A stretch of DNA of 45,102 nucleotides from Candidatus Eiseniibacteriota bacterium (GCA_044222065.1 JBGAOA010000038.1:1-45102), one strand, 5' to 3'. Positions 5,189 through 36,963 are shown, numbered from the stretch's first letter. A program made the numbers and translations. The notes: generated by a model from the sequence alone, not told the origin.

Positions 5189-5301
5189 TCGATTGAGCTT
5201 CCGGGTTCGCGTGCGGGGCGCCGACACGGCGCGCCGCAGTTATCGGCCGGGGGAGGGCCGGACTTGGGGACGACGGTAGCGCCGCGCGGCGCGCGGCGCG
5301 A

Positions 5302-16612: not shown

Positions 16613-16780
16613 ATGGCCCTGAGTCCCGATCTGCTCTCGATCCTCGTGTGCCCCGCCTGCAAGGGCGATCTCGCCTACGACGCCGCGGCCCAGACGCTGA
16701 CGTGCAACGCCTGCCGCCTCCGCTACAAGGTCGTGGACGACATCCCGGTCATGCTGGTCGAGGAGGCGGAGAAGTTCTGA
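16613..16780 (+). CDS. Trm112/YcaR family small zinc-ribbon protein (55 aa)
   Basis: Absent from the ORF track. [55 protein letters not shown], with a GAGGT RBS; classic LL.ILVCP.CKG.L...C..C...Y.V.D.IPVML signature. Confidence 0.92.
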
Positions 16781-16803
16781 ACCCTCCCACCCCGCGAGTG
16801 CGC

Positions 16804-19800
16804 ATGCTCCGACTCCTCCGTCGCACGACGCTCGTGGCCGCCGTTTCAGCGCTCGCGCCGCTGTTCGCACGCGGCGCGGCGGCCGACGACGTGACGCTGC
16901 TGCCGGGCGGCGCGGGGCGCGTGCGCTTCGCGATCCAGTCCGGCGCGCTCGCGCTGACGCCGGTCGGCGCCGACGGGCTCGTCCAGCCGAACGTTCCGGG
17001 CTGCATGCTCGACGGCGCCGCGGGCGGTCCCGCGCTGCCGATGCGAACGGTCACGATCGCGGTGCCGCCCGAGGGCGACGTGAGCGTCACCGCGACCGCG
17101 CTCGATCCCGAGTCGCGCGACGGCGTGGACGTCGCCCCGACCGCGGCGCACGCGCCGCAGCTGCCGGGCGGCTTCGCGTTCCCGCGCCGCGCGGACCTGT
17201 TCCGGGGCGCGCCACCGGCCGCGCCGCGCGCGACGATCGTCGGCGTGTCGTGGCTGCGCAATCAGCGCATCGCCCAGATCGCGGTGCGCGTCGCGGACTG
17301 GGATCCGGCCTCGAGGCGGCTCACGAAGTGGAACCGCATCGAGGTGGACGTCGAGGTGTCGGGACGCGCCGCCACCGCATTCGCCTCTTCACCGGCGGAA
17401 CTCGCGGATCCCTTCGAAACGATCTACCGCGAGTCGCTGCTCAACTACGAGCAGGGGCGGAGCTGGCGGCGCAGCGCGGCCTCGCTCGCCGGCGCCCGCG
17501 CGTCGCGCGCATCGTCGGGCGGCGCCCGGACGCTCGCGCTGCCGCCCGATTCCAGCGTGTTCGCGGGCCGGACGTGGATCAAGCTCGCGATCTCGCAGGC
17601 GGGCTTCTACCGCGTGAACTTCGGGCAGATCCGGAATCTGTCGCTGTTCGGCGGCGACACGACCGTCGCGATCGACAGCCTGAGGCTGTTCACGATGCCC
17701 GGCGTGCCGGTGCTTCCCGAGCACAACTACTGCGACACGTGCGACTACCGCGAGGTCGCCTTCCGGGTGAAGGACAACGGCGACGGGAAGCTCAATCGCA
17801 ACACGGACGAGATCGAGTTCTACGCACTCGGCGTCAACGACTGGGCGAACGTGTTCGATCCCGACCAGCCGGACACGCTCTACATCAACGATCCGTACGA
17901 GACGAAGAACTACTACTACCTCACCGTGAGCACGGCGCAATCGCCGGTGCGCGGACCGTTCCGGCGCGTGCCCGCGGTGGCCGCGACCGTGGATTCGAGC
18001 GGCGCCGAGATCTCGCCGGTGACGTTCGTGGAGCGGCAGCACTACGAGCAGGACGTCGAGTACCTGCCAGACCTGTCGCCGAAGGTGGACACGCGCTTCA
18101 CGATGCCGTGGCAGAAGTTCTTCTGGAGGAGCATCGGGACGGGCCAGCAGCTCACGGTGCCGCTGAACACGCCGGGGATGGACGTCACGCAGCCGACGAG
18201 CGTCCGAGCGCACGTGTGGGGCGTCGGGATCGTGGACGCGTGCGAGCCGGACCTCTACCACCGCCTCACCGTGAACGTGAGCGGGAACCTGCACGCGGAC
18301 TCGCTGCTCGTGCAGCCGTTCGCGCTCGAGGCGCCGGATCCGTTCCTCGACTTCACGGACGTGCTGCCCGCGACGGGCAATTCGGTGCAGATCCTGGTCA
18401 ACTCGGATCCAGCCTGCACGCCGCGCGTCGACCGCGTGGCGATCGCGTGGGTCGAGGTCCGCTACCCGCGGCGATTCGAGCCGGTGACGAACGAACTGAC
18501 CTTCGAGTCGCCCGCCGCGGGCGGCAACTACATCTACCACCTGGGTCCGTTCGCCTCCTCCACGCCGCCGCAGATCTTCGACGTCACGCGCCCCGACTCG
18601 GTCGTCGAACTGCTCGCGCCGGGCGAGTACCGCCAGGACGCGTCCGGCGACTGGTACCTGCGCTTCGAGACGAACGAGTCCGGACGCCGCCGCTATCGCG
18701 TCCTGCAGAGCGCCGGGATCGCGACGCTGCCCGACGCGCAGATCGGCGAGGCCGCAGCGACGAGCCTTTCGAACCTGCGGAGCACGTCGCGCTCCGCGCA
18801 GTACCTGCTGCTCTACTACGACGGCTTCCAGCAGGCGGCCGAGGAGCTGCGGCTCCTGCGCACGCGGCGGCTGCCGCTCGACGGCGCGAGCGCGCCTTTC
18901 GACGCGCAGAAGATCCCGATCTCGGCCGTGTTCGACCAGTTCTCGGGCGGGCGCGTGGATCCGCTCGCGATCCGGAACTTCCTGCGCTCCGTGTTCTACA
19001 ACTGGCGCGCGAACGGCGCGCCGCCCGCGTTCGTGACGCTGCTCGGCGACGCCTCCTACGACTTCAAGAACATCCTCGGTCGCGCGCCGTCCGGACAGCC
19101 CGGCGCCCCGATGCCGAGCTTCGAGGACGGCTGGTCCATCAATCGCGCGTTCGCGACCGACGACGTGCTCCTGAACGTGGACAATCCGGACGTGATCGTG
19201 CCCGACTTCTTCGGCGGCCGGATCCCGGTGTCGAGCGCGACGAGCGCGCTCGAGTACGTGCGCAACAAGGTGGTGCGCTACGAAGAGGCCGCGCCGCTCG
19301 GCGCGTACCGCAACCGCGTGATGCTGATCGCCGACGACAACCTGCAAGGCGCGGCCGAAGACGGCCTGCACTGGGCGCACGTCGGGCAGACGTCCGAGAT
19401 CGACACGACGCGCGTGCCGCGGGAACTCGATCGCGACTACGTCTACCTGCACAAGTACCCGACCGAAGCGGGCTTCACGAAGCCGACCGCCAAGGCCGCG
19501 ATCAAGGCGAACGTGAATCGCGGCGTGGCGGCGTTCAACTTCATCGGGCACGGGAGCCCGTTCCAGCTCGCGGACGAACGCGTGCTGCTGGACGTGGACG
19601 CCGGCACGTTCGAGAACGACGACCGGCTGCCGCTGTTCGTCGCGGCCTCGTGCGACGTCGGCAAGTTCAACGACCCCGTCGTGCCGAGCCTCGGGGAGCG
19701 CACGCTGCTCGCCGCGAGCGGCGGCGCCGTCGCCGTGATCTCGGCGACGGAACTCGCGTTCAGCACGTACAACGTGGATCTCGCGACCCAGTTCTACCGC

Positions 19801-21084
19801 ACGCTGTTCGACCGCACCGGTGGGGGCGGGCGTTTCCACGGCGGCATCGCGCCCTCCCTGCTCGCGGCCAAGATCGCGACCGGCATCACGCCGGGCGTGC
19901 GCGAGAACAACCAGAAGTACCAGGTGATGGGCGACGCGGCGCTCGGCATGAACCTGCCGAAGTACTGGGCCGACGTGCAGCTGTTCGACTGCGCGACCTG
20001 CACGACGCCGCTCACCGAGATCCGGCGCGGTCGGACGGTCACGGTGCGCGGTCGCGTGCTCGACCGCCCCGGCGGTTCGCCGCTGGCGCTGAACGGGATC
20101 GCCGACCTGCTCGTCGAGGATTCGCCGCCCTACGAACGCACGTCGGGCTGCGTCTCGATCTTCTGCGACGAGGGCTACTTCTACACCGCCGGCGCGATCT
20201 TCCGCGGCGACGTGCGGGTGCAGAACGGCGAGTTCACGACGCAGTTCATCGTGCCGCTCGAGGCCGCGGGCGGCGCGTACGCCCGGGCGCGCGCCTACGT
20301 GCAGGGCCGCGTGAGCGGCGATGCGGTGGACAGCGACGGCACGGGTTCGGCGCGGCTGCAGCTCTCGGCCGGGACGCCGTCCACTTCGGACAACACCGGG
20401 CCCGAGATCACGCTGTCGTTCACGGGCGGCGCGACCGCCGTGAAGAAGGACGCGACGCTCCGCATCGACCTGTTCGACGAGAGCGGCATCCTGATCACCG
20501 ACCACAATCCGCAGAACGGCATCATCGTGACGATCGACGGGAACACGACGTCGCGCGTGGACGTGACGTCCACGTTCCGCTACGCCGCGGGCTCGTACCA
20601 GTCGGGCTCCGCGACGTTCGCGCTCCCGAACCTGTCGCTCGGTCCGCACACAGTTCAGGTGTGCGCCGCCGACAATTTCGCCGCCGGTCTGTCGGCGACC
20701 GCGCATCGCGCGTGCGCGACGCTGTCGTTCACGGTCGCCGAGACGCCGCCGCTCCAGCTCGTGTCCGCCTATCTGTTCCCGAATCCCGCGCGATCGAGCG
20801 GCGGAGCGTCGGGCGGGCAGTTCGTCGTGGACGCCCGCGGCGACAGCGTGAACGCGCTCCTCCGGATCTACACGTCCTCCGGCCGCCTCATCCGCACGCT
20901 CCGCCAGTTCGGCGGCGTCGGGCAGATCCAGATCCCGTGGGACGGCCGGGACGCCGAAGGGGACGCGCTCGCGAACGGCGTGTACTTCTTCCGCGTCCAG
21001 CTCAACGCCCGCGACGAGGAGGGGAACAGCAGCGCCCTGCAGAAGGCGACGGCCGACGGCCGGTTCGTGATCGTGAATCCGTGA
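16804..21084 (+). CDS. porU: PorU-like C25 (gingipain-family) cysteine peptidase/sortase with propeptide-like N-terminus and C-terminal FlgD-Ig/CTD (1426 aa)
   Basis: Signal peptide MLRLLRRTT...ARGAAA. PorU-type segments WIKLAISQAGFYRV, NPYE-like DPYETKNYYYL, FDQFSGGRVDPLAIRNFLR, LLGDASYD and VMLIADD. Catalytic His in FNFIGHG (19549) and Cys in AASCDVGKF (19651). DNTGPEITL...LFDESGI. CTD YLFPNP...WDGRDAEGDALANGVYFFRV. Directly followed by a porV homologue. Confidence 0.85.
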   Translation: MLRLLRRTTLVAAVSALAPLFARGAAADDVTLLPGGAGRVRFAIQSGALALTPVGADGLVQPNVPGCMLDGAAGGPALPMRTVTIAVPPEGDVSVTATALDPESRDGVDVAPTAAHAPQLPGGFAFPRRADLFRGAPPAAPRATIVGVSWLRNQRIAQIAVRVADWDPASRRLTKWNRIEVDVEVSGRAATAFASSPAELADPFETIYRESLLNYEQGRSWRRSAASLAGARASRASSGGARTLALPPDSSVFAGRTWIKLAISQAGFYRVNFGQIRNLSLFGGDTTVAIDSLRLFTMPGVPVLPEHNYCDTCDYREVAFRVKDNGDGKLNRNTDEIEFYALGVNDWANVFDPDQPDTLYINDPYETKNYYYLTVSTAQSPVRGPFRRVPAVAATVDSSGAEISPVTFVERQHYEQDVEYLPDLSPKVDTRFTMPWQKFFWRSIGTGQQLTVPLNTPGMDVTQPTSVRAHVWGVGIVDACEPDLYHRLTVNVSGNLHADSLLVQPFALEAPDPFLDFTDVLPATGNSVQILVNSDPACTPRVDRVAIAWVEVRYPRRFEPVTNELTFESPAAGGNYIYHLGPFASSTPPQIFDVTRPDSVVELLAPGEYRQDASGDWYLRFETNESGRRRYRVLQSAGIATLPDAQIGEAAATSLSNLRSTSRSAQYLLLYYDGFQQAAEELRLLRTRRLPLDGASAPFDAQKIPISAVFDQFSGGRVDPLAIRNFLRSVFYNWRANGAPPAFVTLLGDASYDFKNILGRAPSGQPGAPMPSFEDGWSINRAFATDDVLLNVDNPDVIVPDFFGGRIPVSSATSALEYVRNKVVRYEEAAPLGAYRNRVMLIADDNLQGAAEDGLHWAHVGQTSEIDTTRVPRELDRDYVYLHKYPTEAGFTKPTAKAAIKANVNRGVAAFNFIGHGSPFQLADERVLLDVDAGTFENDDRLPLFVAASCDVGKFNDPVVPSLGERTLLAASGGAVAVISATELAFSTYNVDLATQFYRTLFDRTGGGGRFHGGIAPSLLAAKIATGITPGVRENNQKYQVMGDAALGMNLPKYWADVQLFDCATCTTPLTEIRRGRTVTVRGRVLDRPGGSPLALNGIADLLVEDSPPYERTSGCVSIFCDEGYFYTAGAIFRGDVRVQNGEFTTQFIVPLEAAGGAYARARAYVQGRVSGDAVDSDGTGSARLQLSAGTPSTSDNTGPEITLSFTGGATAVKKDATLRIDLFDESGILITDHNPQNGIIVTIDGNTTSRVDVTSTFRYAAGSYQSGSATFALPNLSLGPHTVQVCAADNFAAGLSATAHRACATLSFTVAETPPLQLVSAYLFPNPARSSGGASGGQFVVDARGDSVNALLRIYTSSGRLIRTLRQFGGVGQIQIPWDGRDAEGDALANGVYFFRVQLNARDEEGNSSALQKATADGRFVIVNP

Positions 21085-21185
21085 CCCCGGGGCGGGAAAT
21101 TTCGGGGAGAATCCCGGGAACCTCCGGTGTAGTATGCGGGCCGAAACTCGCCCGGTGGCTTCATGTTCTCTTGGAGGAGCAGCGC

Positions 21186-22133
21186 GTGAAATCCTTGCAT
21201 ACCTTTGCGTTGGTGGCGGCCGCACTGCTCGTCGCGGGCGCCGCGTTCGCCCAGGGCACCGGGCGCTCGCTCGACATCCAGCCGGGTGGCCGCCAGAACG
21301 GCCTCGGCGCTGCGGGCGTGGCCCTGACGGGCGATCCGACTGCCGCGACGTGGTGGAACGCCGCCGGCCTGGGGTTCATCGAGCGCGGCGGCCTGGACCT
21401 CACGTACGCCCAGCTCGTCCCCGGACTCGCCGACGACGTCAGCTACAACTACCTCGGCTACTGCCAGCCGGTCGAAGGGTGGGGCGCGTTCGGCCTCGGC
21501 ATCGTGTTCCTGAACTACGGCACGACCGAGGGCTTCGACTCGGGCGGCAATTCGACGGGCACGTTCAGCTCCTACGAGTTCTCGCCGGCGTTCTACTACG
21601 GCACCCGCGTGCTGTCGGACCTGTCCGTCGGCGCGTCGCTCAAGTACGTGCGCATCCAGCTCGCGCCCGAGAGCCAGCGTGGCAACGGCTCGACGTTCGG
21701 CCTCGACCTCGGCGCGCTCTATCGCATCCCGGCGGCGAAGCTCAACCTCGGGCTCAACGTGCAGAACCTCGGCCCGAGCGTCACGTTCATCAACGAGGAC
21801 GACGCGAGCCCGCTGTCGCGCAACATCAAGGTCGGCGCGGCGTGGGAGGCCTATCACGCCGGCCAGTTCGGCATGACGCTCGTCGGCGACTACAACCAGT
21901 CGCTCGTGACGAACGACTTCCGCACGTACAACGGCGGCGTCGAACTCAAGGTCGCGGATCAGATCGCGGGACGCCTCGGCTACTACTCCGATCCGCTCGG
22001 CGACATCAAGGACCTCACGTTCGGGCTCGGCATCTCGTGGAAGAGCCTGACGCTCGACTACGGCAGCATTCCCCAGGCGCGCAACTCCGGGCTCGACAAC
22101 GTCCAGAAGATCACGCTCGGCTATCGCTTCTAA
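21186..22133 (+). CDS. porV: PorV/PorQ-family (FadL-like) outer-membrane beta-barrel (315 aa)
   Basis: GTG start with GGAGG RBS; signal peptide. SLDIQPGGRQNGLGAAGVAL...ATWWNAAGL; LVPGLADDVSYNYL; GLNVQNLGP; C-terminal beta-signal ITLGYRF. porU-porV adjacency is as in Bacteroidota. Confidence 0.85.
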   Translation: MKSLHTFALVAAALLVAGAAFAQGTGRSLDIQPGGRQNGLGAAGVALTGDPTAATWWNAAGLGFIERGGLDLTYAQLVPGLADDVSYNYLGYCQPVEGWGAFGLGIVFLNYGTTEGFDSGGNSTGTFSSYEFSPAFYYGTRVLSDLSVGASLKYVRIQLAPESQRGNGSTFGLDLGALYRIPAAKLNLGLNVQNLGPSVTFINEDDASPLSRNIKVGAAWEAYHAGQFGMTLVGDYNQSLVTNDFRTYNGGVELKVADQIAGRLGYYSDPLGDIKDLTFGLGISWKSLTLDYGSIPQARNSGLDNVQKITLGYRF

Positions 22134-22164
22134 TTCCGCGTCTCTCCAACCTCCCGGATCGCCC

Positions 22165-25100
22165 TTGGGCGCTCGAGTCGTTCGACTGTTGCTGTTGCTG
22201 ACGCTGGCGGGCATCGCGTGCGACGCGCACGCGGCGCCCGCTTTGCGCGTTCGACGGCTGCCCGGCACGCCGTCGAACCCGGGCGGCCTGCCGCCCGAGT
22301 ACCGCGCCGAGGCCGAGGCGCGCATCCGCCAGTGGCGCTCGTTCGACGACGTGATCGTCGGGCCCGGCGCGCGCTGGACGCACTCCGATCCCCGCCGCAC
22401 CGGCGCTCAGTCCCCGTTCGCCGCGGGGAAGGACCTGAAGAGCGGCGCGCCGGTGACGAACGCTCCGATCAAGACGAAGCGCGTCGCGTTCATCCGCATC
22501 GACTTCCTCGCCGACCGCGGCGGCCCGAACACCTCGGGCGACGGCCGCTTCGATCTGTCGGGTCCGGACACGCTCGCGCCGCCGATCGACCGCGCGCCGC
22601 ACAATCGCGACTTCTACCTCGCGCACCTCGAGGCGCTGAAGCGCTACTACGCGACGCAGACGTACGGGCAGGTCGCGATCGAGGGCGACGTGTGGCCGCG
22701 CAGCCCGAACGGCGCGTACTCGGTGAGCGACCTCGCCGACTTCGGGCCGTGGCGCTTCAGCACCGACATCTACGGCGCGGCGGTGCACATGTTCCGCACC
22801 ATGATCCTCGCCGCCGACTCGCAATCGGTCGTGCTCGGTGACCGCATTCCGTGGGACCAGTACGGATACATCGTGCTGATCCACGCCGGCAGCGACTTCC
22901 AGAGCGACGTGCGCCAGGACAGCCCGCAGGACATCCCGTCGTTCACGATCGGCGTCCCCGACACCGACGCGGTCGTCGTGCGCAACGTGTCCGCGCCCGG
23001 GGACTCGTTCGTCATCGACCGCGCGTCGCTCGTGCCCGAGACGATCAACCAGGACGAGCGCTTCGGCGCGATCAACGGCGTGCTCGCGCACGAGTGCGGC
23101 CACCTGTTCTTCGGCTTCGCCGACATCTACGACGTGAACTCGGGCCTGCCGACCGTGGGGTTCTGGTCGCTCATGGACACGGGGAACAACCTCGGCATCC
23201 CGGTGCAGCCCGCCTACGGCCCAGAGATCTACGCGACCGGCATCGTGCCGCCCGCGATCGATCCGCTGCAGCGCTATTTCGCGTGCCCGAACCTCGCGCT
23301 CACCGAAGTGTCGTTCGGAGACACCGTGAACGTGACGGACGTCGAGCGCCACGGCGACATCCTGCGCGTGCGGATGTCGAGCGACGAGGACCTGCTGATC
23401 GAGAACCGCTACGTGCCGCCGGCGAGCGTGATCGAGCTCGACCAGGATCCGGTGACGCGCGTCGTGCTCGGTCCCAGGGCGCCCGAGACCTGGAACTACG
23501 ACGCGCTGCTGCCCGGCGGCGGCGTGCTCGTGTGGCACGTGGACTCGAGCGTGATCCCGTTCACGAACTCGCTGCGCACGAACCCCGACTTCGGCTTCAA
23601 CAGCGATCCCTTCCGCCAGGGCCTCAGCGTCATCGAGGCCGACGCGCTCGACGACCTCGGCGACTTCAACTCGCCCTACTGGCTCGCGAGCTATCGCGAT
23701 CCCTGGTACGCGGGCAACGCGACCGTGCTGAGCGACACGACGCGTCCGAAGCTCGTCACGCACGCGGGCACGAAGCCGCACGTGCGCCTCGAGGTGTTCG
23801 GCGCGCCCGACACGACGATGCGCCTCTACGCGACGCGCACGTGGCTGCTGCCGGGCTTCCCGCTGCTGTCGAGCTTCCCGAGCGCGGGCCCGCAGCTGCT
23901 CGCGATCGACGCCGACGGCGACGGAAAGCGCGAGGTGTGCTGGGCGGGCGGCGATCCGCTCGTCGGCGACACGCTGTCGTTGTTCGCGGTGCGTGCGAGC
24001 GGCGCGGGACTCGCGGGGCCCGATCCCGTGTTCGCCACGCTCGACGCGGTGCCCTTCGGCCAGATGGCGGCGATCGCGACGGGCAATCCCGCGACCGGCC
24101 TCGGCCCCTCGCTGTTCGCGGTCTCCACGATTCCGACCGGCCCGACGCTCGCGAGCGACGGCGGCCGCGTGTGGTTGTTCGATCACACGGGCGCGACGTC
24201 CGGCGCGTGGCCGGCCGCGCTGCCCTCGATCGTCACGACGCCGCCGGTGCTCGCCGGCGCGTACCCGAACGCGAACGTGATCGTCGGCTGCGCGGACGGG
24301 CGCGTGTACGCGCTCAACCTGGACGGCTCGATCCGCGCGACGAGCGCGGTCGCGCTCGCGGGCGGCGTGCGCGGCAAGCTCGCGGTGACGCAGGCGCCCG
24401 GAGTGCCGGGCACCGACGGCCTCGCCGCGTCGGGCTGGGCGATCGCCGCGGGCGGAGGCGCGGGCGACGTCGGCGTGTTCCTGCTCGCCGTGCCCGGCGC
24501 CGGACCGGACGCGATGCCGGCCGCGAACGGCTGGCCGCGCACGATGCTCGCGACGGCGTCGTTCGATCCGGACTTCCTGTGGCTCGACTTCGACGGTGCC
24601 GGCAGTGCGAACCCCACGGGCTGCGGCTCGGGCGCGCCCGAGCTCGTCGTGCACCACGCCGACCTGCTGTGGGGCTTCTGCCTCACGGGCACCCCGCTCG
24701 CGGGCTTCGGACACGACGTCGGCGACACGCTCATCGCCTCGCTCGGCGCGGGCGATCCCGACGGCGACGGCTACCCCGAGGTGCTCACGCAGAACCGTCT
24801 CGCGCAGGTCGCGTTCGTGAACGCGAGCGGCTATCCGTCGCCCGGATGGCCGCGCGCGCTCTCGACCGAGGGCATCCTCGCCGAGAAGCCGGAGCTGACG
24901 TTCCCCGACACCGCGCGTTCGTTCCCGACCTCGAGCGCGCCGCTCGCCGTGGATCCCGTCGGCGACGGGCGCACGCGCGTCGTCGCGCTGACGGCGACCG
25001 GCGTGCTCGCGGCGCTCGACGGCGCGGGCCGCGTGCCCGAAGGCTGGCCGCTCGCGACCGGCTCGGGCGCGCTCGGCACGCCCGTCGTCTCGGACCTCGA

Positions 25101-25560
25101 CGGCGACGGCCACGCCGAACTCGTCGCGCCCGACCGGCTCGGCCTGCTGTGGGCCTACACGCTGCCCGGCGCGGCCGCCGATCCGCTCGTGAATCCGTGG
25201 CCGATGCTCGGCGGCGACCCGGGGCGCACGTTCGCGCTCGCGCGCGCGCGCACGTCGACGCCCGCGCCGTACGCGAAGGGGCCGCTCGTCTCGGGCTCGC
25301 TCAAGGCGTTCCCGAATCCCGCGCGCCAGAAGCCCGTGTCGCTCGCGTTCCAGCTCACCGAACCCGCCGACGTCGAGATCCGCATCCTCGACACGTCCGG
25401 GCACGAGGTCGCGCGGCTGCACCACGACGGCCAGCCGAGCGACAACCGCGTGATCTGGGATCCGGGCGGCGCGCCGGCGGGGCTCTACCTCGCGCGCGTG
25501 CGCATCCGCGGCAACGGCAGCGAGCGCACCGAGACGCTCAACGTGGGAGTGATCAAGTGA
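22165..25560 (+). CDS. Secreted M6 (immune inhibitor A-like) metallopeptidase with FG-GAP repeats and a T9SS-type CTD (1131 aa)
   Basis: IRIDF, VLIHAGSD, zinc motif AHECGHLFFGFADIY (23089), WSLMDTG, IENR and VLVWHVD. DADGDG/DPDGDG/DLDGDG repeats. C-terminal AFPNPA...IRILDTSGHEVARL...WDPGGAPAGLYLARV. Confidence 0.8.
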   Translation: MGARVVRLLLLLTLAGIACDAHAAPALRVRRLPGTPSNPGGLPPEYRAEAEARIRQWRSFDDVIVGPGARWTHSDPRRTGAQSPFAAGKDLKSGAPVTNAPIKTKRVAFIRIDFLADRGGPNTSGDGRFDLSGPDTLAPPIDRAPHNRDFYLAHLEALKRYYATQTYGQVAIEGDVWPRSPNGAYSVSDLADFGPWRFSTDIYGAAVHMFRTMILAADSQSVVLGDRIPWDQYGYIVLIHAGSDFQSDVRQDSPQDIPSFTIGVPDTDAVVVRNVSAPGDSFVIDRASLVPETINQDERFGAINGVLAHECGHLFFGFADIYDVNSGLPTVGFWSLMDTGNNLGIPVQPAYGPEIYATGIVPPAIDPLQRYFACPNLALTEVSFGDTVNVTDVERHGDILRVRMSSDEDLLIENRYVPPASVIELDQDPVTRVVLGPRAPETWNYDALLPGGGVLVWHVDSSVIPFTNSLRTNPDFGFNSDPFRQGLSVIEADALDDLGDFNSPYWLASYRDPWYAGNATVLSDTTRPKLVTHAGTKPHVRLEVFGAPDTTMRLYATRTWLLPGFPLLSSFPSAGPQLLAIDADGDGKREVCWAGGDPLVGDTLSLFAVRASGAGLAGPDPVFATLDAVPFGQMAAIATGNPATGLGPSLFAVSTIPTGPTLASDGGRVWLFDHTGATSGAWPAALPSIVTTPPVLAGAYPNANVIVGCADGRVYALNLDGSIRATSAVALAGGVRGKLAVTQAPGVPGTDGLAASGWAIAAGGGAGDVGVFLLAVPGAGPDAMPAANGWPRTMLATASFDPDFLWLDFDGAGSANPTGCGSGAPELVVHHADLLWGFCLTGTPLAGFGHDVGDTLIASLGAGDPDGDGYPEVLTQNRLAQVAFVNASGYPSPGWPRALSTEGILAEKPELTFPDTARSFPTSSAPLAVDPVGDGRTRVVALTATGVLAALDGAGRVPEGWPLATGSGALGTPVVSDLDGDGHAELVAPDRLGLLWAYTLPGAAADPLVNPWPMLGGDPGRTFALARARTSTPAPYAKGPLVSGSLKAFPNPARQKPVSLAFQLTEPADVEIRILDTSGHEVARLHHDGQPSDNRVIWDPGGAPAGLYLARVRIRGNGSERTETLNVGVIK

Positions 25561-26333
25561 AGCGGCTCGCGCTCGCGTGCGCGGCGCTCGCGCTCGCCGC
25601 GCTGCCGGCGTGGCGCGCCGAGGCGGCGCCATCTGCGTTCGCGCTGCCGCTCGTGCCGCCGTCCGAGGCGCCGGGCCTCGTCGTGCTGCAGCGCGCGATC
25701 ACGCGCGAGTGGGGGCCGTCGGACGACTCGACCTACGTCGAGGTGAACGTGCCCGGCGAGCGCTCGGAGGGCTGGGCGATGCTGCTGTCGGGCCTCGTGC
25801 CCGGTTCGGGCCAGCTCTACGCGGGCGAGTCGAGCGGCTGGCTGTTCGCCGCGATCGAAGCCGGCGGCTGGATCGCGAACGTGCTCTACGCGCGCCGGGC
25901 GGAAGACCGCCGCGACCAGGCGGAGGCGTTCGCGGGCGATCCCGAGCAGGCCGGGTCGAATTGGTCGTTCGCGCGCTGGGAGAGCGCGACCGGCGGCAGC
26001 GCGACCGACCTGCGCGCGCTCTACGTCGCCGACCGCAACGCGTTCTTCCAGCGGATCGGTTCCGATCCCTCGTTCGTCTACGGCTGGTCGGGCGTTCCGG
26101 GCAGCACGCAGCTCGACTACCGCGCGATCTACAGCCGCTTCGAGATGAACCACGACCGCGCCCGCATCGCGGCGCGCGCGCTGCTCGCGAACCACGTCCT
26201 CGCGGCGGTGGACGCGCTGCGCACGATGCGCGCTCACAACGCGCAGGCGCGGGCGGCGATCGGCATGGACGTGAACGGCGGCTGGCGCGACGGCGAGCCG
26301 CTCGTGCGCGTCGCGCTCGTGAGGACGTTCTGA
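25557..26333 (+). CDS. Exported hypothetical protein with DUF5683-like S-x-x-x-P-G-x-G-Q motif (258 aa)
   Basis: GTGA overlap with the upstream stop. Signal peptide VKRLALACAALALAALPAWRAEA; AMLLSGLVPGSGQLYAG; ends LVRVALVRTF. Confidence 0.7.
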   Translation: MKRLALACAALALAALPAWRAEAAPSAFALPLVPPSEAPGLVVLQRAITREWGPSDDSTYVEVNVPGERSEGWAMLLSGLVPGSGQLYAGESSGWLFAAIEAGGWIANVLYARRAEDRRDQAEAFAGDPEQAGSNWSFARWESATGGSATDLRALYVADRNAFFQRIGSDPSFVYGWSGVPGSTQLDYRAIYSRFEMNHDRARIAARALLANHVLAAVDALRTMRAHNAQARAAIGMDVNGGWRDGEPLVRVALVRTF

Positions 26334-27262
26334 TGCGCGCGCACCGTTTCGCACCGGCGATCGCGTTCGCGGCGCTCTGCGCGGCCGCGTCCGCCTTCGC
26401 GTCCGAGCCCGGCCGCTCGGCGTTCTCGCTCGCCGGCGAGGCGCGATTCGACGCCACCGCGCTCGAATCGGGTGCGCCGTCCGCGTCGTCGTCGGGCTTC
26501 GAAGCCGTCGAGGCGGGCGAGCCGCTCGCCCTCGGACTTCCGCTCTTCGGCCGCAAGTCCCGCGCGGCGGACAGCACGGCCGCGCCGGCAGAGCCTCGCA
26601 AGAAGGGTCGCCGCGCGCGGCCCGCGCGCAGCGGCCCGGCCCTGAGTCCCGAGCGCGCGCGCATCCTGCTCCAGTCGCTGACGGTGCCGGGGTGGGGGCA
26701 GGCGACGCTCCACCAGAACCGCGCGGCCGCCGTGTTCCTCACGCTCGAAGGCGGCACGTGGGGCAGCTACCTCGCGTTCCGCATCCAGGAGCGGCTGCGC
26801 CGCGACACGTACGTGCGCACGGCGCGCGACCTCGCGGGCATCGACCTCAAGGGCCACAGCGAGGAGTACCACCGCATGGTGGGCTCGTTCCTCTCGAGCG
26901 ACGAATACAACCTGTTCGTCGTGTACCGCGACGCGGCGAACCAGTTCTACGACCAGCCCGACGCCTACTGGGCCTACATCGCGGCGCACGAGCTCAAAGG
27001 CAGCGACACGTGGGCGTGGCCGGACGTGCCGAGCCTGCTGCGCTACCGCGCGCAGCGGAAGGACGCGCAGCGCGCCGCGCAGCGCGCCAACACGGCGCTC
27101 GCGTGCGCGATCGGCAACCGCCTCCTCAGCATGGTGCACGCCGCGCGCGCCGCGGGACGCGCGCCGGCCGAGGCGGGGAAGGCCTCGTGGCGCATCGAGG
27201 CGGCCCCCGCGCCGGGCGACGACGCGTCCGCGTTCCGATTCGCGCTCACCGCGAAGTTCTGA
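26333..27262 (+). CDS. Second exported DUF5683-like hypothetical protein, paralogue of the upstream gene (309 aa)
   Basis: TGATG overlap. Signal peptide MRAHRFAPAIAFAALCAAASAFA; LLQSLTVPGWGQ; ends FRFALTAKF. Confidence 0.7.
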   Translation: MRAHRFAPAIAFAALCAAASAFASEPGRSAFSLAGEARFDATALESGAPSASSSGFEAVEAGEPLALGLPLFGRKSRAADSTAAPAEPRKKGRRARPARSGPALSPERARILLQSLTVPGWGQATLHQNRAAAVFLTLEGGTWGSYLAFRIQERLRRDTYVRTARDLAGIDLKGHSEEYHRMVGSFLSSDEYNLFVVYRDAANQFYDQPDAYWAYIAAHELKGSDTWAWPDVPSLLRYRAQRKDAQRAAQRANTALACAIGNRLLSMVHAARAAGRAPAEAGKASWRIEAAPAPGDDASAFRFALTAKF

Positions 27263-27269
27263 GGCGCTG

Positions 27270-28271
27270 ATGCGGCGCGCGCTCGTCCGGGCCGTCCTCG
27301 CCGCGAGCGGGACGCTCGCGGCCGCGGCGGCGTTCGCGACTCCCGAGTCCGCCGCGCCCGATTCGACCGCGTCCGCCGCCGTGCGCGCCGCGGCGCCGCT
27401 CGCGGCCGACTCGCTCGCGGCGCGCGCGTTCGCGGAGACGCTCGAAGTGCGCCGCGTGCTCGTCACGGCGGGCGAAGGCCCCGGCCACGTGCGCCGGCCG
27501 TCGGGCGTGGCGGTGGACGCGTTCGGACGGCTGTGGACGACCGACGAGGCCGAGCACCGCCTGCAGCGCTTCGATGCCGAAGGGCGCGCGATCGCCGAGG
27601 CCGGGGCACTCGGGAGCGATCCCGGCCAGCTGCGGCGCCCGGTCGGCGTCGCGCTGCACGGCAGCGCCGGACTCGCCGTGCTCGATCTTGAGAACCGCCG
27701 CATCGTGGCCTACGACCTGTTCGCGCGCCGCAGCGGCGACCTCGTGGACTTCGCCGCGCTCGAGCCGCGACGACCCGCTCGGCCGCATCGAGCCGAACGC
27801 GTTCGCCGCGGACCGCGGCGGGGCGCTGTACGTCGTGGACCCGGACCGCGACCGCATCGTGATCGTCTGCCGGCGCGGCGACGGGCACGCTCGGCGGATC
27901 TGCACGCGGCCCGGCGCGTTCCGCGGGCTCGCGGGTCTCGCGATCGGCGCGCGGCGAGATCGTCGCGGCCGAGCGCGGGAACGCGCGCGTGCAGGTGCTC
28001 GATGCGGGCGGTGGCCGCGTGTTGCGCGCGTGGCCGCTCGACGTGCGGCCTGGGCGCGAGTCGCTCGCGGTCGCGACCGACGCCGGCGGACGCGTCGCCG
28101 CCGACGAGGCGGCCGGCGCCGTGTGGCTGTTCGCCGCGGACGGCGCGCCGATCGCGGTCGCGCGCGGGCTCGACGGCCCCGCGGCGCTCGCGTTCGCGCG
28201 CTCCGGCGGCCTGATCGTGTGCGAGCGACGCGGCGGACGCATCGTGGAGCTCGCGGCCCGACGCGCGCTGA
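27270..28271 (+). CDS. Exported NHL-repeat (beta-propeller) protein, interrupted by at least 3 frameshifts (probable sequencing indels, or a pseudogene)
   Basis: NHL repeats RPSGVAVDAFGRLWTTD and GQLRRPVGVAL in the 27270 frame; IEPNAFAADRGGALYVVD in the next frame from ~27766; EIVAAERGNARVQVLD and LDGPAALAFARSGGLIVCE in the third frame from ~27955. TGA 28269-28271 is back in the start frame. Confidence 0.7.
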
Positions 28272-28274
28272 GCC

Positions 28275-31200
28275 ATGCGCGCTCCGCGCGTGCGTTCCGT
28301 GCGCCGCGCTGGCGCTCGCGGCCCTCGCCGCGGGCGCGGGCGACGCGCGCGCCGCCGCGATCGAGGCCGGCTGCGGCGCGGTGCTCGTCGCGCCGCGCGC
28401 GGGCCAGGTCGTGTACCCGCTCGGCCGCACGTTCCTGCGCGCGGGCTCCGATTCGGTCGTGGCGCGCGGCGTGCGCCTCGTGCGCGGACTCGACTACGTG
28501 CTCGATCCGCTGCGGGGCGAGCTGCGCCTGCTGCGGCCCCCCGAGTCTCTCGACACGCTGCGCGTGTTCGCGTGCGGGCTCGTCGCCTCGCCGCCGCTCG
28601 AAGTGGCGCGCGACCGCTACCGGCCGCCCTCGGCGGCGCCGCCCGAGACGGCGCGCGCCGCCGCGCCTTTGCCCGTTCGGCCCGGCCTCGTGCGCGGCGC
28701 CTCGACCGGCGCCTCGCTCAGCGTCACGGGCAACAAGACGCTCGCGATCGACTTCGGCTCCCAGCAGGACGCGTTCCTGCGCCAGTCGCTCGACCTCGCG
28801 GTGAGCGGCTCGCTCGCGCCGGGCGTCGAGCTCACGGGCGTGCTCACCGACCGCAACACGCCGCTCACGGCCGAGGGCAGCACGCAGTCGCTCCAGTCGC
28901 TCGACCGCGTGCTGATCGAGCTGAGCGCGCCGCAGGGGAGTGCTGCGCTCGGCGACGTGACGCTCGAATGGAAGGACGGCGACTTCGGGCGCATCGAGCG
29001 GCGGCTCCAGGGCGCGCGCGGGCAGTGGACGGCGGGCGGCTTCACCGCCGCCGCCGCCGCCGCGAGCGCGCAGGGCGAGTACCGGCGCGTGCAGTTCAAC
29101 GGGGTGGACGGACGCCAGGGCCCCTACGCGCTCACCGACGCGAGCGGCCGCACCGGTGTCGCCGTCGTGGCGGGCAGCGAGATCGTCACGCTCGACGGCC
29201 AGCGGCTCAAGCGCGGCGAGAACGCCGACTACGCGATGGACTACGACCGCGGCGAACTCACGTTCACGAACCGGCGCACGATTTCCTCCGCGAGCCGCAT
29301 CACCGTCGAGTACCAGTTCGCGCTCAACCGCTACCGGCGGAATCTCGCGGCCGCGGGCGGCGCGTGGGGCGCGGGCCCGGTGCGCGCGTTCACGCGCGTC
29401 ATCGCCGAGTCCGACGATCGCGGCCGCCCGCTCGACGTGACGTTCGACGCCTCGGACCGCGCGATCCTCGCCGCGGCCGGCGACTCGGCGACGCTCGCGC
29501 TCGGGGCCGGCGTCGTCGCGGGAGGCGGCGACTACGACACGGTGCGCACGTCCGGCACGCTCGTGTACGCGTTCGCGGGGCGCGACTCGGGCGAGTTCGC
29601 CGTGAACTTCGCGCGCGTCGGGGCGGGCCTCGGCGACTACGCCGACTCGGCGAGCGTCGGCGGGCGTGTCGTGTACCGCCACGTCGGCGACGGGCTCGGG
29701 GCGTTCCGGATCGGGAAGTCGCTGCCGCTCCCGGAATCGCACCTGCTGTGGACGCTCGGCGCCGAGGCCGGGCGCGGCCCGCTGCGCTTCTCGGCCGAGG
29801 GCGCGGTCTCGCGGCTCGACCGCAACACGCTCTCCGCGGTCGACGACGGCGACGATCTCGGCGGCGCGGCGCGCGTGTCGCTGGCCGCGTCCGGGCGCGT
29901 GCGCGGGCCGGTCGCGGGCGACGCCTCGCTCGCGCTGCTCGCGCGCACCGTGGGGAAGCGCTTCGAGCCGTTCGCGCGGCTCGAGTCGCCGTTCGCGCAG
30001 GAGTCGTGGGGGCTCCAGGGCACGACCGACTTCGAGCGCCAGGACCGCGCCGAGGCGCTCGCGACGTTCCGGCACGCGCGCGCGGGGGAGTGGCGGCTCG
30101 GCGCGGGCGCGCTGCGCACGCCGTCGGGCTACGACGCGACGCGGCGCACGTTCGACTGGAGCCGCACGGGACGGTTCGGCGGGCGCGTGCTCGGCGAGTG
30201 GGCGGACGGGACCGAAGCGGGGCGCGCGTTCGGCGAAGGCGGCCGGCGGCGCGCGCGCGCCGACTTCCGCTGGACGCTCGGCGCATTCGAGCCGCGGGTC
30301 GCGGCCGAGTCCGACGAGCGGCGCTTCCCCGGGGACACGGCCGAAGCCGGCGCGCGGGCGCGCGAGGCGTCGTTCGACCTCGGCTTCGCGAACGCGCGCG
30401 GCTGGCGGGCGTCGTCCGGGTGGCTCGTGCGCCGCGACGCGGCGCGCGCCGCGGGAGCGTTCCGCGACCGGCTCGAGTCGCGCGCGCTCCGCGCGTCGCT
30501 CGAGAGCCCGGCGGAATCGCGCGTCGGCGGCGCGCTGAGCTACCAGTCGCGCGAGGCCGAGACGCTCGCCGACGGTTCGCGCACGCGCAGCGACCTCGGC
30601 AGCGCGCGGCTGCGGGTCGAAGACCGGACGCGCGGACTGTCGGCGAACGCCGGCGTCGAGATCACGAGCGAGGGCGTCGTGCGGCGGCAGCGCGTGCTGA
30701 CGTTCGTCGGGGGCGGGCGCGGCGCGTACGACGCGCTCGGCAACTTCGTCGGCGTCGGCGACTACGACCTCGGCGTGACGGCCGGCGAGACGATCGACCG
30801 GCTGAGCCGGGCGGCGACGAGCGCGCGGTTCGCCTGGAGCTTCGGGTCGGGGGAGGCCTGGAAGGGCTCGCGGCTCGAGTTCGCTTACGAGACCGACGCG
30901 CGCCGGCGCGGCGACCTGCGCGCGTCCGACCCGCTCGTCTCGCCCGCGGTCGTGCGCGAGGACCTGGGGCTCGCGCGCGGCAGCCTCACGCAGCGCTTCG
31001 AGGGCGAACTCGCGCCCGGCGCGCGCGCGCTCGCGACCCGCTTCCGGCTCGAGCGCCGGCTCGCCTCCGACCGCGCGTTCGAGAACTTCTCGCAGGTGTC
31101 GGACGACCGCACGGGCTCGCTGCGCACCCGCGCGCGGCTCGGCCCCGCGGCGAGCGCGGAACTCGAGGGCCGGCTCCGCCGCCAGACCGCGGAGCAGCGG

Positions 31201-31617
31201 TTCGCGAGCACGGCCGCGTACGCGCGCACGATCGAAGATCGCGGCGGCTCCGGGCTGCTGTCGTGGACGCCGGGTCCGAAGCTGCGTGGCGCGTTCACGC
31301 TCGACCTCGGGTGGTCGCGGCCCGAAGGGCAGCCCGCCTTCACGCGCACGCTCAAGGTCGGCCCCGACCTCGGTGTCACGCTGCTCGAGCGCGGACGGCT
31401 CGACGTGACGGCGCGGCGCGCGTTCGTGAGCGGGCCGCCCGCGGTGGGACTGCTGCCGAGCGCGGATCCCGCCGGCGCGCCGGTGTGGGAAGGCACGGCG
31501 CGCTTCGACTACCGCGTGCGCGAGAGCACGACCGTGGGCCTGAGCCTCACGTCGCGCGAGTTCGCCGGCCGGCGCGCGCAGACGACCGGCCGGGCCGAAG
31601 TGAGGGCGTTCTTCTGA
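28275..31617 (+). CDS. Large outer-membrane protein (~1,110 aa) with SprA-like motifs; start ATG out of frame by an apparent indel
   Basis: Signal-peptide-like CAALALAALAAGAGDARA. SLSVTGNKTLAIDFGSQQDAFLRQSLDLAVSGSLAPGVELTGVLTDRNTP; GRQGPYAL...GSEIVTLDGQRLKRGENADYAMDYDRGELTF. Long amphipathic beta-rich C-terminal half ending AEVRAFF. ATG 28275 is one base off the main frame, within a GC dinucleotide run. Confidence 0.7.
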
Positions 31618-33344
31618 TGCGCCCGGCGATCCCGACGAACGCCGTGCGCCGCGCGCCGCGCGCGCTCGGGCTCGTGCTGCTCGGCGCGCTCGCGCTCGCG
31701 CCGGGCGCGGACGCGGCGGTGCTCCGCTACGAGGGGCGCGCGCTCGCCGAGCGCCAGGTCGAACCGTTGTTTCGCGCGGCGCTCGGGTCTCCCGGCGACA
31801 GCGTGCGGCTCAGGCGCGCGGCCGACGCGCTGCTCGAGCGGCTCCAGTCCGAGGGCCGGCTCGATGCGCGCGTGACCGCGGAGTGGCTCGGCGCGCGTTC
31901 CGAGACGCTCGCGGTCGCGGCCGACGACGGGCCGCTCTACCGCCTCGCCGCGATTCCGATCGCGAGCGCGAGCGCCGAGGACTCGGCGGCGTTCGGCCGC
32001 GCGCTCGAACTCGCACCGGGCGACGTCGCGTCGCCGTCGCGCGTCGCGCAGGCCATCGAGCGCGCGATGCGCCGCGTCGCGGACGACGCGCACCCGTACG
32101 CGACGCTGCAGATCACCGCGTGGGAGGCGGACAGCGGGCGCGTGACGCTGCGGCTCGGAGCGACCGCGGGTCCGCGCGTCACGGTCGGCGAGGTCGTGCT
32201 GCGCGGGCTCGTCGCGACCGACGAGCGCTTCGCGAAGCGCGCGATGGGCAAGCTCGAGGGCCTGCCGTACCGGCGCGCGGGCGCCGAGGCCGCGCGCGAC
32301 CGGCTCGCGCAGACCGGACTCTTCCGCTCGGTCGCGTGGGAAGGGCTCGAGGGCGAGGCCGACTGGAGCCGCGCGCGCCTCGTCTATCGCGTCGAGGAGC
32401 CGCGCTACAACCGCTTCGAGGGCGCCGTCGGCGTGCAGGGCGACGCCGGCACGGTCGGGCTCGCCGCGCTCGACCTCGACAACCTCGCCGGCACGGGCCG
32501 CGCGCTCGGACTCGGATGGCAGTCGCGCGGGCGCGACCGCACCGAGTTCCGCGCGCGCTACGCCGAACCGCTCGTGTTCGGCGCGCCGATCCGCCTCGCG
32601 GGGCACCTCGAGCAGTCGCTGCAGGATTCGACGTGGACGCGGACGCGCTGGGGCGGCGACGTCGAGTTCACGCTCTCGGCGGAAGAGCGGCTGTCGGCCG
32701 GCTACGAGGAGGAACGCGTCGTGCAGGAACGCGGGCCCGTCGAGGAGGCGCACCTCGCGAACACGACGTTCGCGCTCGTGCGCACGACGCTCGACGAGCC
32801 GCTCGCGCCGCGCCGCGGCACGCGCACGCGGCTCGCCGCGACGCAGGCGTTCAAGACCGAGCGCCTGCGGCCGTCCGCGCGCCGCAGCGCGCGCGCGAGC
32901 GCGGTCGAGGGATCGCTCGAAGCGCACCGGCCGCTCGGCCCCGCGAGCGGCGTGTCGCTCGCGCTCTCGGCCGCGGGGCGCTTCAGCTCGGAGCGCGTGC
33001 TGCCCGTGTTCGAGCGCTACCCCGTCGGCGGCGCGGCGAGCCTGCGCGGCTACGACGAAGAGGCGTTCCGCGCCGACCGCTTCGGCCTCTCGCGGCTCGA
33101 GTGGAGCCGCTTCCTCGGTGGCGAGGGAGCGCGCGCGTTCCTGTTCTGGGATCATGCGTGGATGGCGACGCGGCTCGAGCTTCCGGACGGCGGCGATCGC
33201 GCCGAAGTGCTGCATCGCGACGGCTACGGCTTCGGACTCCGGCTGCCGGCCGCGGGCGGCGCGATCGAACTGGACTACGGCCTCGAAGCGGGCCGCACGC
33301 CGCTCGACGGCAAGATCCACCTGAGGCTCGTGAGCGCCTTCTAG
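31617..33344 (+). CDS. Omp85 (BamA/TamA-family) outer-membrane protein with POTRA domains (575 aa)
   Basis: TGATG overlap; signal peptide. POTRA-like segments (VGEVVLRG...RDRLAQTGLFRSV...LVYRVEE); NLAGTGRAL; YAEPLVFG; PRRG; conserved loop motif GGAASLRGY; GYGFGLR; C-terminal Phe. Confidence 0.85.
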   Translation: MRPAIPTNAVRRAPRALGLVLLGALALAPGADAAVLRYEGRALAERQVEPLFRAALGSPGDSVRLRRAADALLERLQSEGRLDARVTAEWLGARSETLAVAADDGPLYRLAAIPIASASAEDSAAFGRALELAPGDVASPSRVAQAIERAMRRVADDAHPYATLQITAWEADSGRVTLRLGATAGPRVTVGEVVLRGLVATDERFAKRAMGKLEGLPYRRAGAEAARDRLAQTGLFRSVAWEGLEGEADWSRARLVYRVEEPRYNRFEGAVGVQGDAGTVGLAALDLDNLAGTGRALGLGWQSRGRDRTEFRARYAEPLVFGAPIRLAGHLEQSLQDSTWTRTRWGGDVEFTLSAEERLSAGYEEERVVQERGPVEEAHLANTTFALVRTTLDEPLAPRRGTRTRLAATQAFKTERLRPSARRSARASAVEGSLEAHRPLGPASGVSLALSAAGRFSSERVLPVFERYPVGGAASLRGYDEEAFRADRFGLSRLEWSRFLGGEGARAFLFWDHAWMATRLELPDGGDRAEVLHRDGYGFGLRLPAAGGAIELDYGLEAGRTPLDGKIHLRLVSAF

Positions 33345-35440: not shown

Positions 35441-36959
35441 TCGTCCTCGGCGACCGCCCGCTCGCGCTGCACGACGTCGCCGCGGTCGCGCGCGACGGTG
35501 CAGGTGACGCTCGCGCCGGACGCGCGCACCCGGCTACGTGCGAGCCGCAAGGTGTCGACGCGCGGTGCGCGAAGGGCGCGTGGTGTGCAGCGTGACGACC
35601 GGATTCGGCGAGCTCAAGGACCGCCGCATCCCCGCCGCCGACGTGCGCGCGCTGCAGCTCAACCTGCTGCGCTCGCACCAGGCCGGCGTCGGCCGCTTCG
35701 CGCCGCGCGACGTCGTGCGCGCGATGCTGCTGCTGCGCGCGGCCTCGCTCGCGCAGGGCGCGTCGGGCGCCCGGCCCGAAGTCGTCGAGGCGCTGCTCGC
35801 ACTGCTCGACCGCGACGTCGTGCCGCAGATCCCGGTGCAGGGTTCGGTCGGCGCGTCGGGCGACCTCGCGCCGCTCGCGCACCTCGCGGGCGTGCTCGTC
35901 GGCGAGGGCGAGGCGTGGGCCGCGGGCCAGCCCATGCCGGCCTCGATGGCGCTGCGCGCCGCCGGGCTCCAGCCGCTCGAACTCGAGGCGAAGGAAGGAC
36001 TCGCGCTCATCAACGGCACGCAGTTCTCGACCGCGTGGGCGGCGCTCGCGACCGTGGACGCGGTGCGCGTCTGGGAGTCCGGGGTCGCGGCGGCGGCGCT
36101 CTCGACCGAAGTGCTGCTCGGCTCGCTCGCCCCGGCGCGCGAGGACGTGCACGCGCTGCGGCCCTATCCCGGTGCGCAGGAAGCCGCGCGCCGGCTGCGC
36201 GCCTACGCGGCCGACAGTGCGCTCGTCGCCTCGCACGCGAACTGCGGGCGCGTGCAGGACGCCTACAGCCTGCGGTGCGTGCCGCAGGTGATGGGCGCGT
36301 CGTGGGACGCGCTGCAGCACGTCGGCGACCAGCTCACGATCGAGATCAACTCGGTGAACGACAATCCGCTCGTGCTCGCCGAGAGCGGCGAGACGATCTC
36401 GGCGTGGACTGCTGGACGCGCGCGTTCCACGCGCAGCCGTCGCGCTCGTCGCCGACTACCTGAAGCTCGCGGCCGCCGAGATCGCGTCGCTGAGCGAGCG
36501 GCGCATCGACCGGCTCCTGGACCGGCGCGTGAGTGAACTGCCGGCCGTGCTCGCGAACGATCCCGGCGTCGAGTCGGGCTACATGATCGCGCAGTACACG
36601 GCCGCCGCCCTCGTGTCGGAGAACAAGACGCTCGCGCATCCGGCGAGCGTCGACTCGATCCCGACGGGCGCCGGCATCGAGGACCACGTCAGCATGGCGC
36701 CGATCGCGGCGCGCCATGCGCGCCAGATCGTGGACAACGCCGCGCACGTCGTCGCGATGGAACTCCTGTGCGCCTGCCGCGCGCTCGAGTTCCGCCGCCC
36801 GCTCACGGCCGGACTCGGATCCGAACGCCTCTACGGCGCGATCCGCCGGCTCGTGCCGGCGCCGGAAGGCGACCGGCCGCTGTCCAAGGACTGCGAGGCC
36901 GTCGCGCGCTGGGTGCTGTCGGCCGCGCCGGAACGTCTCGCCGAGGAGGTGCTCGTCCC

Positions 36960-36963
<4 letters not shown>
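35437..36963 (+). CDS. hutH: Histidine ammonia-lyase, with at least 4 frameshifts in two short garbled patches (probable sequencing errors)
   Basis: GTGA overlap with din[18 protein letters not shown]-forming GASGDL (ASG 35853-35861), [49 protein letters not shown] and EDHVSM. Frames switch near 35499, 35560, 36405 and 36439. The net span of 509 codons is a normal HutH length. Confidence 0.9.

Follow-up and report, generated by a model that had tools for sequence, protein, structure and literature searches.

The porU–omp85 operon

We describe an operon on a contig of a Candidatus Eiseniibacteriota genome (GCA_044222065.1, JBGAOA010000038.1:1-45102; contig C77). The window, by which we mean the whole 45,102-nt stretch that was analyzed, belongs to an assembly of 4.2 Mb that has 72% GC and is 94% complete. 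Its gene order is dnaE, accA, a Trm112-like gene, porU, porV, an M6 metalloprotease gene, dufA, dufB, an NHL propeller gene, a giant β-barrel gene, omp85, and dinG (Table 1). To judge by genomes and models, the eight genes from porU to omp85 probably form the sorting and accessory module of a type IX secretion system (T9SS), one that works without the GldKLMN motor.

A first-pass annotation, made from the sequence alone, had claimed eight tightly packed, co-directional genes; family models and coordinates bear this out, with all eight on the + strand at the positions claimed. The junctions after porV are, as it had said, overlaps or gaps of 3–31 nt (in order 31, −4 [GTGA], −1 [TGATG], 7, 3, and −1 nt [TGATG]; the last places the omp85 ATG, read from the junction sequence, at 31617), and the porU–porV gap is 101 nt. 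Its starting point had to be moved: the gene at 16613 is the Trm112-like neighbor, which is missing upstream of porU in several families, and the system begins with porU at 16804.

PorU and PorV pass their family models, which upholds the proposal of a T9SS-type sorting module outside Bacteroidota. As translated from the window, PorU has the GHG and SC motifs, which every one of the 28 listed relatives shares, and it falls below the TIGR04183 cut-off (19 against 23). PorV, directly downstream, does not reach the PorV equivalog (111.9 against 250). The M6 protein has the HExxH zinc motif, as do all 30 relatives listed, and from this motif the phylum's M6 copies look active.

The first-pass annotation missed a set of frameshifts: in the source assembly, the NHL gene and the first barrel codons change frame, and the barrel start codon is out of frame. 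Contigs from three other studies' runs carry indels here (at 27765, 27866, 27898, 27946, 28010, 28259, and 28283), and both genes are intact in same-family relatives; the frame breaks are therefore most likely assembly errors. Given the compensating indels in independent contigs, we rejected NHL and barrel pseudogenes. Contigs from RNA runs span parts of the operon, and contigs as such cannot demonstrate transcription.

Conservation was scored by tblastn in 40 regions anchored on the barrel; they represent 16 of 17 families and were picked for long contigs (one CTD-only M6 row, where CTD stands for C-terminal domain, was dropped). These loci hold, in the window's order, omp85 in 40, porV, dufA, and dufB in 39 each, porU in 35, the M6 gene in 33, and the NHL gene in 25; several of the missing genes fall at contig ends. 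For DufA, the commonest phylum in the nearest two Atlas clusters is Ca. Eiseniibacteriota.

Table 1. Genes of the operon and its upstream neighbor in the window
Feature	Coordinates	Strand	Evidence and remarks
Trm112/YcaR-like small protein	16613..16780	+	PF03966 E 1e-13; upstream housekeeping neighbor, outside the system
PorU sortase; C25 peptidase, catalytic His/Cys, terminal CTD-like domain	16804..21084	+	NF033707 468.8 > 420
PorV-family carrier barrel; PorU-linked copy of ~9 in the genome	21186..22133	+	NF033709 176.9 > 90
M6-type metalloprotease; FG-GAP repeats, CTD-like end; probable cargo, optional	22165..25560	+	TIGR03296, NF052323 below cut-off
DufA; exported, DUF5683-like, DufB paralogue	25557..26333	+	39/40 loci; reciprocal profile matches with DufB
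DufB; exported, long helical hairpin and C-terminal β-hairpin	26333..27262	+	AlphaFold2 (AF2) predicted local distance difference test (pLDDT) 92.6
NHL β-propeller with signal peptide; frameshifted in assembly, probably by error	27270..28271	+	PF01436
Giant outer-membrane β-barrel, ~1,110 aa; small SprA paralogue by profile comparison	28275..31617	+	AF2 model, HHalign to SprA
Omp85-family protein, ~575 aa; ~3 POTRA by length	31617..33344	+	PF01103, PF07244; 40/40 loci

SprA, cargo, and the search for a motor

The window holds no porKLMN, porZ, or full-size sprA, as the first-pass annotation had observed. Its further idea of a compact system, if taken to mean a self-contained one, fails on the rest of the genome. 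A full-size SprA (2,175 aa; TIGR04189 530, cut-off 200) is encoded on contig C118, a PorZ-like candidate on C51 (754 aa; 80, equivalog cut-off 260), and a PorQ-like candidate on C7 (305 aa; 66, equivalog cut-off 220). BamA with one Skp gene after bamA, a TamA-like gene, and two more proteins of the C25-peptidase type that end in a CTD-like domain (C38:54336-58454 and C112:2164-7050) also lie elsewhere in the genome, and the PorV family numbers about nine genes, the window's copy among them. Among 151 genomes of the phylum, a tally that takes in the source genome and one unpublished genome on which no claim rests singly, SprA was found in 144, in 138 of them over the cut-off. A self-contained exporter in which the giant barrel replaces SprA would suit the tight operon and the barrel's kinship with SprA, yet the prevalence of full-size SprA and the PorZ-like and PorQ-like genes elsewhere make it highly improbable. 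SprA on C118 rules out the barrel as sole translocon.

At C118:529-9672, sprA stands head-to-head with two permease-like genes, which resemble lptF/lptG, and an M28 peptidase gene and nusA-infB follow sprA. The PorZ-like protein (C51:41351-43612), a CTD-bearing propeller, is encoded within a glycosyltransferase cluster that is a candidate source of the anchor glycolipid.

Candidate cargo is abundant. A CTD profile built locally from PorU and M6 C-termini matched 213 frames of the source genome, 210 of them C-terminal, giving ~200 candidate cargoes; on 3,109 roughly called genes it made 193 matches (reversed control, 0). Likely cargo within the window includes a subtilase (6054-9386, +) that has FG-GAP and fn3 domains and ends in a FlgD/CTD-like domain. 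A recurring cassette, found at C55:31002-37573 and also on C80, C84, and C38, combines a PorV-family gene with a gene for a CTD-bearing protein and a large receptor-like gene; the C55 receptor has weak TonB-dependent matches. They suggest dedicated carriers that hold surface proteins next to importers.

No component of the motor scored over its cut-off in any of the 151 phylum genomes, in keeping with the motor-less system first proposed. GldN was not found in any, and its positive controls matched in Bacteroidia-type genomes; nor was GldM, for which the control was positive in two Bacteroidia-type genomes. GldL gave three weak matches and GldK eight genomes with generic matches to the formylglycine-generating enzyme (FGE) domain, both searches lacking a positive control. 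We rejected the source genome's only FGE-sulfatase protein as GldK, having seen no lipoprotein or KLMN-like context. Among 46 named barrel-bearing genomes, GldN was present in nine, and each of these bears the title of Bacteroidota, Bacteroidia, or a Bacteroidia order. GldN is likewise missing from genomes of the Ignavibacteria and Chlorobia types, which stand close to Bacteroidia, and three Thermochlorobacter/Chloroherpetonaceae-titled genomes (L101, L110, L118) have SprA, the barrel, and DufB and no GldN. DUF6089, which we take to be PorG, was not found in the source genome and was found in two Bacteroidia-type genomes; the PorP family was not found in the source genome in a search without a positive control. 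The motor thus seems missing, in the sense of not found with these profiles, which is not proof.

SprA without a detectable motor characterizes the whole phylum sample and most of the non-Bacteroidia genomes of the Fibrobacteres–Chlorobi–Bacteroidetes (FCB) group that we sampled. Because of this, and because the source genome also has PorU, PorV, and its many candidate cargoes, the data suggest that the translocon–carrier–sortase module can work without the motor, and it may predate it. Our best reading is that the operon belongs to a T9SS without the motor, a form that is widespread beyond Bacteroidia.

The alternative is that the system is powered by another motor or by one diverged beyond recognition (of the TonB/ExbBD type, Tol, or a remote GldLM), with DufA and DufB as couplers or bystanders. 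In Flavobacterium johnsoniae, according to the available part of one study, cargo binds the PorV loops inside SprA, and release of carrier and cargo from SprA requires energy from the motor (PMC10994853). The GldKLMN profiles are moreover of Bacteroidia origin, and PorV paralogues in the source genome adjoin TonB-dependent receptor-like genes. Against this, models of the same origin easily detected SprA, PorU, and PorV, the sole FGE-sulfatase-domain protein lies outside any KLMN-like cluster, and GldN is missing even in the Ignavibacteria and Chlorobia-type genomes near Bacteroidia. We consider such a motor unlikely.

DufB and the giant barrel

DufB tracks SprA+/GldN− genomes as a marker at the thresholds of our profiles. 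Among the 46 named barrel-bearing genomes, DufB was found in 33 of the 37 without GldN (one match weak) and in none of the nine with it. An independent draw of 61 genomes, all of the same phylum as one Ignavibacteria-type genome and scored at E ≤ 1e-12, gave 29/35 SprA+/GldN−, 0/14 SprA+/GldN+, and 0/12 SprA− genomes. This distribution supports the new accessory subunits of the first-pass annotation, as candidates.

Its description of two DUF5683-like proteins stands in part: 15 of 38 dufB homologues match DUF5683 weakly (E ≤ 0.05, best 1e-5), and the window's own DufA and DufB gave no match to the Pfam model. In the AF2 model, DufB shows a pair of 40-residue helices, an inserted helical segment, and a β-hairpin at the C-terminus; the last residue is F or W in 27 of 38 homologues. 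DufA ends in a strand with a terminal Phe (F/W terminus in 28 of 39 homologues). For the DufB fold, Foldseek returned no match at E ≤ 0.001, and the best Z of 7.3 belonged to generic helical hairpins; GldM/PorM rows at E 0.5–2.5 were taken as chance. A complex prediction for DufA and DufB scored 0.00 and was counted neither for nor against their interaction.

The giant barrel (1,113 aa; AF2 pLDDT 89.2) shows 38 long strands in the AF2 secondary structure, a count that is a reading of a model. Gaps of 2–8 residues follow the even strands and every large insert follows an odd strand, a pattern that fits periplasmic turns and outer loops. Predicted 38-strand barrels are mentioned for Deinococcus in the available part of PMC9388160. 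Against TIGR04189, the protein gave a 52-residue SprA match of 30 bits (cut-off 200), with no Pfam match and no SprA_N domain. HHalign against a profile of 21 SprA sequences placed strands 1–7 on SprA 163–309 (probability 93, E 3e-7) and, collinear with them, the Ig-like insert with strands 8–9 on SprA 666–748 (probability 98, E 7e-14). The profile–profile comparison was needed, since a single SprA aligned with the Ig-like module alone. Because these alignments are collinear, and because neither the SprA cut-off nor its length is reached, the profile evidence sets the barrel beside the SprA family, as a paralogue, rather than within it.

Structure comparison points the same way, less sharply. 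Foldseek ranked SprA first (E 4e-9), and VIA-align gave SprA the longest alignment (722 residues, root-mean-square deviation [rmsd] 9.2, Z 13.2), with generic barrels at similar or higher Z. The barrel profile had no match at E ≤ 1 among PDB sequences, and none of 20 distant homologues scored above a Pfam cut-off (one DUF1940 below cut-off, a weak DUF2460). The family spans 4,634 clusters at E ≤ 0.001 without a common Pfam label.

The barrel is present in 146 of the 151 phylum genomes. SprA occurs in 44 of the 46 named barrel-bearing genomes, and none of the 10 SprA-less genomes searched (12 available) yielded the barrel, in searches without a positive control. A profile derived from the phylum matches Bacteroidia-type barrels at E below 1e-80. 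A FastTree phylogeny of 39 barrels, subject to composition bias and long branches, unites the window with 16 phylum-sample rows and one Ca. Eiseniibacteriota record in one clade (support 100); together with the DufA clusters, this makes Ca. Eisenbacteria the most likely placement of the source organism. The GldN+ Bacteroidia-type barrels (L134, L135, L146, L151, L152) are set apart by a long stem branch (1.31), which hints at altered function where the motor is present.

Omp85 always adjoins the giant barrel in this phylum, and a role as the barrel's own assembly factor is plausible. We rejected it as the housekeeping BamA (TIGR03303 76, cut-off 297); BamA proper, at 471 bits, is on C106.

Outside the phylum the operon usually comes apart. 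In 20 of 80 named barrel loci, the barrel is flanked by both NHL and Omp85 genes (KSB1, Calditrichota, Zixibacteria, and Marinimicrobia types), and records of Bacteroidia, Chlorobia, and Ignavibacteria show it solitary. When 20 dufB loci from other phyla were compared, 11 had porV-M6-dufA-dufB with an added peptidase-MA/propeller/Omp85-type gene, and dufB was solitary in nine. The first-pass annotation had proposed a comparison of synteny across FCB candidate phyla; the two modules are joined in this phylum and in a Zixibacteria record, and elsewhere they are usually separate.

These counts bear on a second alternative, in which the operon would be two adjoining modules with no relation to each other: porU-porV-M6-dufA-dufB would serve the T9SS, and NHL–barrel–Omp85 would be a separate channel or biogenesis machine. 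The flanking genes suit it (NHL and Omp85 at 20 of 80 barrels, porV near two), as do porV-M6-dufA-dufB loci without the barrel in Calditrichia and KSB1-type records. It sits poorly, however, with a barrel that is homologous to SprA, that keeps company with it in genome after genome, and that was not found in the ten SprA-less genomes searched, and with a joined form in two phyla. We rate it as quite unlikely and regard the 38-strand barrel as likely linked to the T9SS.

The added peptidase-MA/TolB-propeller/Omp85-type gene of the porV-M6-duf operons (e.g., L194:15698-18781, L178:11292-14480) has its best source-genome relative at C124:11594-14695, near a TamA-like gene. The Zixibacteria operon carries two tandem PorV genes (L194:9616-11596).

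Other genes of the window lie outside these subjects. They include an AAA ATPase fused to a SPOR domain (3026-5227, −), an architecture that we take to be ExeA-like; a histidine ammonia-lyase-type gene across two frames (35538-36963, +), possibly a further assembly error, followed by urocanase and FTCD genes; and a 684-aa TPR-repeat protein (41619-43673, +).

Proposed mechanism and comparison with known systems

In the mechanism we propose by analogy with Bacteroidia, cargo would cross the inner membrane by Sec, enter the full-size SprA of C118, bind PorV, and exit with it. PorU cleaves and anchors cargo together with PorQ and PorZ in the system described in the available part of PMC10202324; here PorU would cut and anchor it, the probable anchor being a glycolipid that the PorZ-like protein delivers. 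Release of PorV and cargo from SprA, motor-powered in Bacteroidia, would be done by an outer-membrane accessory factor. The most likely candidate is DufB, acting with DufA and fixed in the membrane through the β-hairpin at its C-terminus, an assignment in which our confidence stops somewhat short of even. More tentatively still, the barrel may be a second SprA-family export channel for a subset of cargo or carriers, with the NHL protein as plug or lid and Omp85 as dedicated assembly partner.

Several observations weigh against this reading. The motor's absence rests on Bacteroidia-trained profiles, and TonB/ExbBD and Tol were not searched. Six SprA+/GldN− genomes had no strong DufB match (four of five re-tested were weak and partial only), the mutual exclusion of DufB and GldN may reflect one evolutionary event, as kin are not independent, and the nine solitary dufB loci are distant from T9SS genes. 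The likeness of barrel and SprA is loose in structure (TM 0.24, rmsd ~9 Å), and the C-terminal half of the barrel matches SprA weakly, at its end. The barrel also occurs in GldN+ Bacteroidia and is hence not specific to the motor-less form, the ten SprA-less genomes are small and may be incomplete, and NHL–barrel–Omp85 usually stands apart from porU/porV outside the phylum, with porV near the barrel in only two of 80 named loci.

The first-pass annotation had named beforehand what would tell against it: a complete canonical T9SS elsewhere in the genome, with motor and full-size sprA, and downstream genes that do not co-occur with porU/porV in relatives. A full-size sprA does lie elsewhere, a motor was not found there, and the downstream genes do co-occur with porU/porV in relatives.

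For Rhodothermus and Salinibacter, older surveys reportedly recorded sets of gld genes that were incomplete, and the bare lack of a motor may already be in print. Searches of the literature, subscription papers excepted, turned up nothing on the operon, on the barrel family, or on a T9SS without its motor. As far as their available text goes, one paper mentions T9SS parts outside Bacteroidota in passing (PMC11285876), another reports SprA across FCB phyla except Chlorobiota (PMC12611786), although the three Thermochlorobacter/Chloroherpetonaceae-titled genomes above carry it, and two hold nothing on missing motors (PMC5445135, PMC11205867). A 2025 paper, again from its available part, infers that the T9SS first evolved within gliding machinery (PMC12635249).

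A motor-less T9SS could be the ancestral and most widespread FCB form, with two SprA-family channels and DufB releasing cargo without a motor driven by proton motive force, and Bacteroidia would later have swapped DufB for the gliding energy chain. We think this possible but on the unlikely side; if true, it would reverse the published inference on the system's origin. That no motor was found makes the energy source and origin of the system testable, and the locus offers two concrete targets, DufB, which tracks the motor-less form, and a predicted SprA paralogue two strands larger than SprA. Flavobacteriales and Chitinophagales records hold the barrel too, so relatives that are genetically tractable should allow it to be tested.

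Comparison with known families places the individual proteins. The M6 protein shares its architecture with NF052323, "T9SS-dependent M6-like inactivated metalloprotease"; a syntenic Calditrichia protein passes that model (624 > 600), and the window's M6 scores 147.8. The model is named for inactivated enzymes, whereas the phylum's M6 copies keep HExxH. DufA and DufB resemble DUF5683 (PF18935) through a weak match to its N-terminal helix-turn-helix motif, but they fall below its cut-off and form a longer subfamily with a helical insert, for which GldN+ genomes gave no match at our thresholds. The operon Omp85 shares POTRA and the Omp85 barrel with BamA/TamA, and 26 of 39 homologues have (V/L/I/M)RG(Y/F), which we take to be the Omp85 loop motif. 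It differs from BamA, which has five POTRA, in its ~575 aa and sub-cut-off score, and BamA and TamA-like genes exist elsewhere in the genome. With SprA/Sov (36 strands; PDB 6h3i, 8gl6), the barrel has in common the collinear strands 1–9, the Ig-like module, and the terminal Phe. SprA/Sov are 2,200–2,400 aa long, however, whereas the barrel has ~1,110 aa and ~38 predicted strands, lacks most large inserts and SprA_N, and is encoded with its own NHL propeller and Omp85.

As a whole, the source genome shares with the T9SS of F. johnsoniae and Porphyromonas gingivalis a full-size SprA, the PorU His/Cys pair, the PorV family, genes like porZ and porQ, and an abundance of Ig-like sorting domains at protein C-termini. 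Those systems have GldKLMN/PorKLMN, which was not found in the 151 phylum genomes, and the PorP family and DUF6089, which were not found in the source genome. In contrast to them, porU-porV is here joined to six more genes, and DufB was found only where GldN is missing.

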